Part shown: piece by piece, positions 17,811 through 17,891 of the stretch
Layout: each line of letters starts with the position of its first letter
Position numbering within the stretch: the stretch's first letter is position 1
DNA from: Opitutus sp. GAS368
GTDB taxonomy: Bacteria; Verrucomicrobiota; Verrucomicrobiia; Opitutales; Opitutaceae
Direction of reading: 5' to 3'
Assembly (NCBI RefSeq): GCF_900104925.1
Contig: NZ_LT629735.1
Location: forward strand, 372,291-404,290
DNA: 32,000 nucleotides
Notes under the pieces: model-generated
The model's input: the letters and a program-made list of their open reading frames with translations, nothing else
Databases searched by the model: none
What the model was told of the DNA's origin: nothing
Translations under genes and position numbers: made by a program

Positions 17811-17891
17811 TGTAGGGCGGGATCACCGTATCCCGCCACGAACGTGATATACCTTTCGAACGGAGGCGGGATACGGTGATCCCGCCCTACA
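17811..17891. repeat. REPIN-like doublet, family 1 copy 1 (27-nt arm / 27-nt spacer / 27-nt arm)
   Basis: Left arm tgtagggcgggatcaccgtatcccgcc (17811-37). The right arm at 17865-91 is its exact reverse complement. Each arm is a TGTAG head plus an internal hairpin ggcgggat-caccgt-atcccgcc. It lies between the divergent exosortase and HIT genes. Confidence 0.95.

Follow-up and report, generated by a model that had tools for sequence, protein, structure and literature searches.

A REPIN family and its probable cognate RAYT gene in Opitutus sp. GAS368

Introduction

In Opitutus terrae, GTAG-tagged REPs are 'highly enriched', with several families per genome (Di Nocera et al. 2013, BMC Genomics 14:522, PMC3733652). 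These REPs form head-to-head (HH) dimers with 20-100-bp spacers, RAYT genes are flanked by GTAG REPs, some REPs are intragenic, and GTAG termini can supply TAG stop codons (PMC3733652). A second described system is that of the REPINs, inverted doublets that act as the replicative unit; their arms are better conserved than the spacer, the spacing is itself conserved, compensatory changes occur, and the cognate RAYT lies between REPs of its own (Bertels & Rainey 2011, PLoS Genet 7:e1002132, PMC3116915). RAYTs that are single-copy and vertically inherited have also been described (Bertels et al. 2017, PMC5581495).

Here we describe two inverted repeats, copy 1 and copy 2, in a 32,000-nt stretch of DNA (the window, G000:C1:372291-404290) from Opitutus sp. 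GAS368, together with the family to which they belong in the genome, a single contig of 4,150,883 bp with 65.7% G+C. The family resembles the REPs of O. terrae, also in the Opitutaceae, in its GTAG stem-loops (with 6-13-bp stems in O. terrae), in the presence of several REP families per genome, in dimers with GTAG on the outside, in GTAG-flanked RAYTs, and in repeats that supply TAG stops or lie within genes. It differs in coming from another genus or species and in having a stem and loop of its own, the comparison with GTAG-17 to GTAG-20 being one of descriptions. With the REPINs of Pseudomonas fluorescens SBW25 (PMC3116915) it shares the replicative inverted doublet with conserved arms and spacing, a long hairpin predicted for single-stranded DNA, two-sided compensatory changes, singlets as decayed remnants and a REP-flanked RAYT. 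The SBW25 doublets number in the hundreds, however, compared with about 40 here, and belong to another phylum; their excision intermediates have been seen by population sequencing, whereas the present family is known from genome sequence alone.

Results

Anatomy of the two copies

Both copies consist of perfect 27-nt inverted arms separated by a 27-nt spacer, as the preliminary description of this DNA had stated (Table 1). The arms are 100% complementary at both loci, and in copy 2 the pairing amounts to 28 nt once the bases of the spacer that flank it are counted. The arm was correctly read as a TGTAG head followed by a hairpin, that is, TGTAG, GGCGGGAT, CACCG(T/C) and ATCCCGCC in succession; a single arm folds into an 8-bp stem with a 6-nt loop at -9.1 kcal/mol. 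The sole difference between the arms of copies 1 and 2 is a T or C at position 19, the last base of the loop, and in each copy it is mirrored in the partner arm. The spacers are AT-richer than the arms, with a consensus GC content of 37% compared with 70%. As single-stranded DNA, each whole element is predicted to form a long hairpin; the folding energies are -39 to -41 kcal/mol and the z-scores relative to shuffles -10.6 to -12.6. The arm pattern, with up to three mismatches, has four matches in the window against none in 100 shuffles. Both the arm matches and the folds in the window far exceed chance.

One element of the initial reading has to be given up. The two spacers, thought to be unrelated in sequence, agree at 15 of 27 positions when read by eye, and both derive from the spacer consensus of the family, TCGAACGTGATATCATTTTCGAACGAA, with matches in the same orientation at 22/27 positions for copy 1 and 19/27 for copy 2.

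Table 1. Coordinates of the REPIN components in the window and of RAYT genes in the genome
Feature	Coordinates	Strand	Description
Copy 1, left REP arm	window 17811..17837	+	TGTAG head, 8-bp stem GGCGGGAT/ATCCCGCC, loop CACCGT (T19 type)
Copy 1, spacer	window 17838..17864	+	27 nt, ACGAACGTGATATACCTTTCGAACGGA; 22/27 identical to family spacer consensus, '+' orientation
Copy 1, right REP arm	window 17865..17891	-	exact reverse complement of left arm; followed by ATTTCAAATC
Copy 2, left REP arm	window 21802..21828	+	C19 type; TAG of head (21804-21806) is the stop codon of 21165-21806
Copy 2, spacer	window 21829..21855	+	27 nt, TCGAGGGTCTTATTATTTTCGCGGGAA; 19/27 identical to family spacer consensus, '+' orientation
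Copy 2, right REP arm	window 21856..21882	-	C19 type; exact reverse complement of left arm
RAYT ORF	genome 1775191-1775655	-	155 aa, 55% G+C; bracketed by arms 1775153-1775179 and 1775712-1775738
RAYT-like loci, examples	673007-673444; 477087-477677; 3168996-3169718; 1185053-1185703		genome G000:C1

The repeat family in the genome

A search that allowed up to five substitutions found 82 arms on the 4.15-Mb chromosome, of which 76 sit in 38 head-outward doublets, the other six being singlets. GTAG is intact in 72 of the 82; position 3 is C in eight arms and position 4 is G in two. All but one of the doublets are short, and for these 37 a spacing of 27 nt proves to be preferred rather than fixed, as had been suggested it might be: it is exact in 27, while the remaining spacers range from 15 to 34 nt, plus one of 82 nt that holds a different REP-like palindrome. 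The spacer consensus is found in either orientation relative to the chromosome, implying that a doublet with its spacer constitutes one oriented unit. This orientation has no replication-strand bias, the ratio of '+' to '-' being 9:5 and 9:4 by our own tally on two replichores set by the extremes of cumulative GC skew (about 1.70 and 3.83 Mb).

Divergence from the consensus is 2.7% per site for the arms (position 19 excluded) and 22.4% for the spacers, which thus diverge about eight times faster. Target duplications, sought as flanking direct repeats of at least 2 nt, are absent from 34 of the 37 short doublets. No Rfam family matches at its gathering score; generic miRNA-hairpin models reach 22-36 bits, compared with the 57-150 required. 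At seven of 74 doublet ends the CTACA end is directly followed by an A/T-rich tail, ATTTCAAATC(AG), one example being that beside copy 1 (window 17892-17903). The tail is rare in the rest of the genome and has no fixed relation to spacer orientation; it could mean that certain targets are preferred or that the element extends asymmetrically.

The RAYT gene

In the 38th doublet (1775153-1775738) the two arms, both perfect and of T19 type, are 532 nt apart and enclose a 155-aa ORF (Table 1). A RAYT gene flanked by these REPs, which the preliminary description would lead one to expect, is present. Its product matches the NCBIfam model NF047646, REP_Tyr_transpos (REP-associated tyrosine transposase), with 111.5 bits against a cut-off of 80, and Pfam Y1_Tnp with 32.9 bits. 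An active enzyme is predicted from its motifs, MPDHVHFF (HUH) and WQYVRQNPVRAGL (catalytic Tyr).

The RAYT belongs to the same Y1/HUH fold family as the TnpA transposases of IS200/IS605 elements such as IS608 and ISDra2, which recognise a subterminal hairpin and a short tetranucleotide on single-stranded DNA and leave no target duplication. In contrast to these, it falls short of the NCBIfam IS200 model (25.3 bits, cut-off 55), and RAYTs are single-copy genes that mobilise non-coding REPINs. An alignment with E. coli TnpA_REP, the structure of which is known bound to REP DNA (PDB 4ER8, Messing et al. 2012, PMC3479197), covers residues 41-147 and places both the HUH motif (PDHVH versus PEHMH) and the Tyr motif (YVRQNPV versus YIYINPV) in register. 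These motifs and the substrate logic of a hairpin plus GTAG are the points of likeness; the match itself has only 37.5 bits (E = 1.9e-8), the REP sequence is another one, and in E. coli the repeats have a BIME organisation.

A RAYT of this type occurs once in the genome, the next paralogue being 47% identical. There are nevertheless about 10 RAYT-like genes, all with MPDH.H and NPV motifs (examples in Table 1), and at least nine of them are flanked by GTAG-, GGAG- or GTGG-headed palindromes of their own; that at 1185053-1185703 is broken by an in-frame TGA. The IS200-type tnpA genes, present as two identical copies (1734480 and 3396105), are separate from these.

Relatives in the genus

The arm, with at most two mismatches, is found in 27 of 61 genomes of the genus, the source genome included; the source genome has 75 such matches, whereas a reversed control pattern has none in all 61. 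Arm loops are species-typical, for example CTCCGT in genome G012 and CGCCGA in G009. Orthologues of the RAYT in congeners are 54-64% identical to it and are flanked by TGTAGGGCGG-type REPs, and in four congeneric species the gene adjoins the same neighbour. The stems at these orthologues are compensated variants of one another (GGCGGGAT/ATCCCGCC, GGCGGGGT/ACCCCGCC and GGCGGCAT/ATGCCGCC). Judged by this synteny and by the related REPs in congeners, the single-copy RAYT appears to be vertically inherited and its REP to co-vary with it. G012 carries 36 arms and has no RAYT match at E <= 1e-20, an absence from a 120-contig assembly that may be an assembly gap.

Insertion differences, a point raised in the preliminary description, are borne out between species (one genome per species was compared), in that neither of the two insertions is present at the orthologous sites of congeners. 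At the site of copy 1 the intergenic region of G006 is compact and without the element, and elsewhere among the congeners the region holds an extra gene, different REP families or both. The site of copy 2 is compact in G006 and G018, holds other REP families in G010, G007, G002 and G008, and in G012 has a single, slightly degenerate REP of the same family that shares the stop codon. Two further REPIN sites have the same pattern, and the insertions thus differ between species.

The extra gene at the copy-1 site is a minus-strand ORF of about 170-200 aa between the exosortase and HIT genes. It is found at five orthologous loci (L015, at G009:C1:2872246-2875729, and L011, L013, L014 and L016) and is absent from the source genome; in G009 it is apparently interrupted by a CTGTAGCCGG...CCGGCTACAG palindrome.

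The same comparison bears on the idea that GTAG at stop codons is a pre-existing insertion target, for which the evidence is mixed and about which we make no claim. At the copy-2 site, the orthologous gene ends in CTGTAG in G018 and G007, which are without this REPIN. At 749279, the G010 orthologue runs four codons further to a TGA, implying that the REPIN there brought its own TAG. At 3771974, more distant relatives have a TGA at the same codon.

Partner arms

Are the two arms of a doublet kept identical? The preliminary description held that they are, and that the mirrored change in the loop implies either copying or pairing in the long hairpin. In a stronger form of this proposal, hairpin-templated repair or intra-element gene conversion homogenises partner arms and so produces the mirrored T/C. 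It is true that partner arms resemble each other more closely than randomly paired arms do. Identity is seen in 17 of 38 doublets, compared with 7.1 expected from random pairing (P ~1e-4), left/right mismatches total 40 rather than the expected 65.5, and both window copies are perfectly concordant. Yet the arms differ in the other 21 doublets. In 13 of the 38 they are discordant at position 19, a marginal departure from the 19.1 expected (P = 0.045), and by our own tally these comprise six T/C and seven C/T, with no bias relative to spacer orientation. Nor is there a strand-specific wobble at this position among the discordant doublets that can be oriented (T/C five, C/T four, again our tally), so that nothing indicates that one strand is the folded one.

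The stem points the same way. Across the 82 arms, the pair formed by positions 12 and 21 is A-T in 69, G-C in 11 and A/G in two, with no G-T or A-C intermediates. Four doublets join an A12/T21 arm to a G12/C21 arm; the long hairpin is broken in these, with two mismatches left uncorrected, whereas each small hairpin is intact. The covariation supports the small hairpin of the arm and not the long one.

The simplest reading is that doublets were copied as units from TT and CC founders, with mutation and occasional exchange giving rise to the mixed doublets. Copying of the whole unit accounts for the correlation between arms without repair, and active arm-to-arm correction is therefore unnecessary and, in our view, unlikely. 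Of the two routes first offered for the mirrored change, copying suffices and long-hairpin pairing is not needed. The arms have in part diverged independently, which the preliminary description had set against a REPIN reading; this has no bearing on the identity of the elements.

A further proposal concerns the gap in divergence between arms and spacers over some 40 old, dispersed copies, which could mean that the arms are actively maintained locus by locus rather than subject to ordinary copying and decay. If the 22% divergence of the spacers is neutral, the copies are old, and conservation of the arms would then need selection or gene conversion beyond their having been recently copied. Such maintenance may involve, for example, RAYT-mediated re-copying or short-tract conversion, and the doublets that combine A-T with G-C arms may be its footprints. 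We consider it improbable.

Gene context

Copy 1 lies in a divergent setting, as first described, with an exosortase (EpsH) gene on the minus strand to one side and a HIT-family gene on the plus strand to the other. Copy 2 comes after gene 21165-21806 (GC3 0.95) and before a DinG-like helicase gene. For the family as a whole, a rough GC3-based gene caller made for this analysis places 34 of the 37 short doublets between genes (22 tandem, six convergent and six divergent) and three possibly within them. By the same rough calls, six doublets share their TAG with the stop codon of a gene and about nine more lie within 0-4 nt of one.

This distribution invites the explanation that the repeats are RNA or DNA structures that serve the host, such as terminators, stabilisers of mRNA 3' ends or protein-binding sites, and that their association with a RAYT is incidental. 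As many as 28 of 37 doublets are downstream of at least one gene, tandem or convergent, and about 15 share a stop codon or start no more than 5 nt from one; the long hairpin, at about -40 kcal/mol, is very stable, and arms some eight times better conserved than spacers could result from selection at each locus. On the other hand, six of the 37, copy 1 among them, lie between divergent genes. A run of TTTT within 9 nt, on either strand, accompanies only 3/37 doublets and neither window copy, and we reject intrinsic (Rho-independent) terminators on this count. The orthologous sites in congeners are empty or carry unrelated REP families, implying that there is no conserved site-specific function, and neither the bracketing of a RAYT by the same REP nor the co-variation of REP and RAYT would be expected of a purely host element. 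A primarily host-functional origin is thus very unlikely. A secondary, exapted role is compatible with the REPIN reading, and at the level of the host might consist, for example, in protection of mRNA 3' ends.

It is hardly credible that the repeats are MITEs, that is, elements shortened by internal deletion from a DDE-type insertion sequence and bounded by terminal inverted repeats: their terminal inverted repeats, small size and many copies would fit, but 34 of 37 lack a target-site duplication, the arm search gave no full-length DDE element, the sole long element bracketed by arms encodes a Y1/HUH RAYT, and each arm is a hairpin with compensated stem changes, as is typical of Y1 substrates.

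The arms also affect how the neighbouring genes are read. The GGTGATCC segment of the arm contains a GTG that gives neighbouring ORFs a false 'first start codon' (window 17826 and 17876), and the longest ORFs of both genes that flank copy 1 begin at such a GTG inside the arms. A recurrent ORF overlap of -16 nt at other copies is the same artefact.

Other repeats in the window and genome

Several further repeats were observed. Just left of copy 1, at window 17781-17808, is a GTGG-headed hairpin, GGTGGAGCGGCTTGCCCTCAAGACGCT, the first 9 nt of which are complementary to GCGCTCCACC (17904-17912) on its right, so that the REPIN looks nested in, or placed beside, another REP-type element. Sequences related to this hairpin occupy the unusual spacers of three other doublets (82, 34 and 17 nt) and also turn up in further genomes of the genus, as well as in one genome from another family. 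The sequence GGTGGAGCG occurs 161 times in the genome.

A second and more abundant REP family has the head TGGAGGGC and is represented in the window at 17276-17326, 19526-19576, 21077-21102 and 30883-30948. The genome contains 331 occurrences of this 8-mer and 26 of the TGGAGGGCCCGCGTC form; no RAYT with exactly these repeats on its flanks was identified there. A perfect 54-nt palindrome with TGTAG heads and no spacer (TGTAGGGGCGTCC...) lies at window 19962-20015, inside a YbeY-like ORF (19585-20184), and a REP resembling it is found at the flank of the RAYT-like gene at genome 3921754-3922239. At window 5372-5445 there is a GGAGGCGGGGCCATCAGCCCCGC inverted doublet, whose family flanks a RAYT at genome 4060896-4061300 and has 26 exact copies in its TGGAGGCGGGACTATCAGTCCCGC form.

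Discussion

We conclude with high confidence that copies 1 and 2 are REPINs, in which a REP hairpin headed by GTAG is doubled in an inverted, head-outward arrangement, and that they belong to a family of about 40 doublets with a cognate RAYT. This was the reading of the preliminary description, and the copies, their spacing, the RAYT and the insertion differences between species all favour it. The features that define REPs and REPINs are present: a GTAG hairpin, dispersed and mostly extragenic copies, a preferred spacing, and a flanked RAYT with HUH and Tyr motifs. The element is of a well-described kind, all its features being known from the REPs of O. terrae and the REPINs of Pseudomonas.

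How would such a family move? The RAYT, a Y1/HUH transposase of the IS200/IS605 lineage and in all likelihood the cognate enzyme of these REPINs, would recognise the small REP hairpin and the adjacent GTAG on single-stranded DNA. By cutting and rejoining, it could copy or move the doublet with its spacer as a unit, without duplicating the target site; cleavage and transposition of this sort are suggested by analogy with E. coli TnpA_REP and IS608. Selection for recognition by the RAYT would then preserve the arms and the spacing of 27 nt but allow the spacer sequence to drift. Mobility of the REPINs is likewise what their anatomy and homology would suggest.

There is a practical consequence for annotation, in that GTG triplets within the arms extend neighbouring ORFs artificially and TGTAG heads supply stop codons. 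The REPIN family leaves current understanding of such elements unchanged. What it provides is a complete REPIN-RAYT pair, consisting of the repeat population, its putative cognate transposase and orthologues across the genus, and it does so from the Verrucomicrobiota, whereas nearly all work on REPINs so far has been in Gammaproteobacteria. Should maintenance of the arms at each locus prove true, a lineage with at least nine co-resident and mutually specific RAYT/REP pairs would be useful for the study of REPIN persistence. A genome with about 10 RAYT-like genes, each with a REP family of its own, could offer comparative material for the population biology of REPINs.
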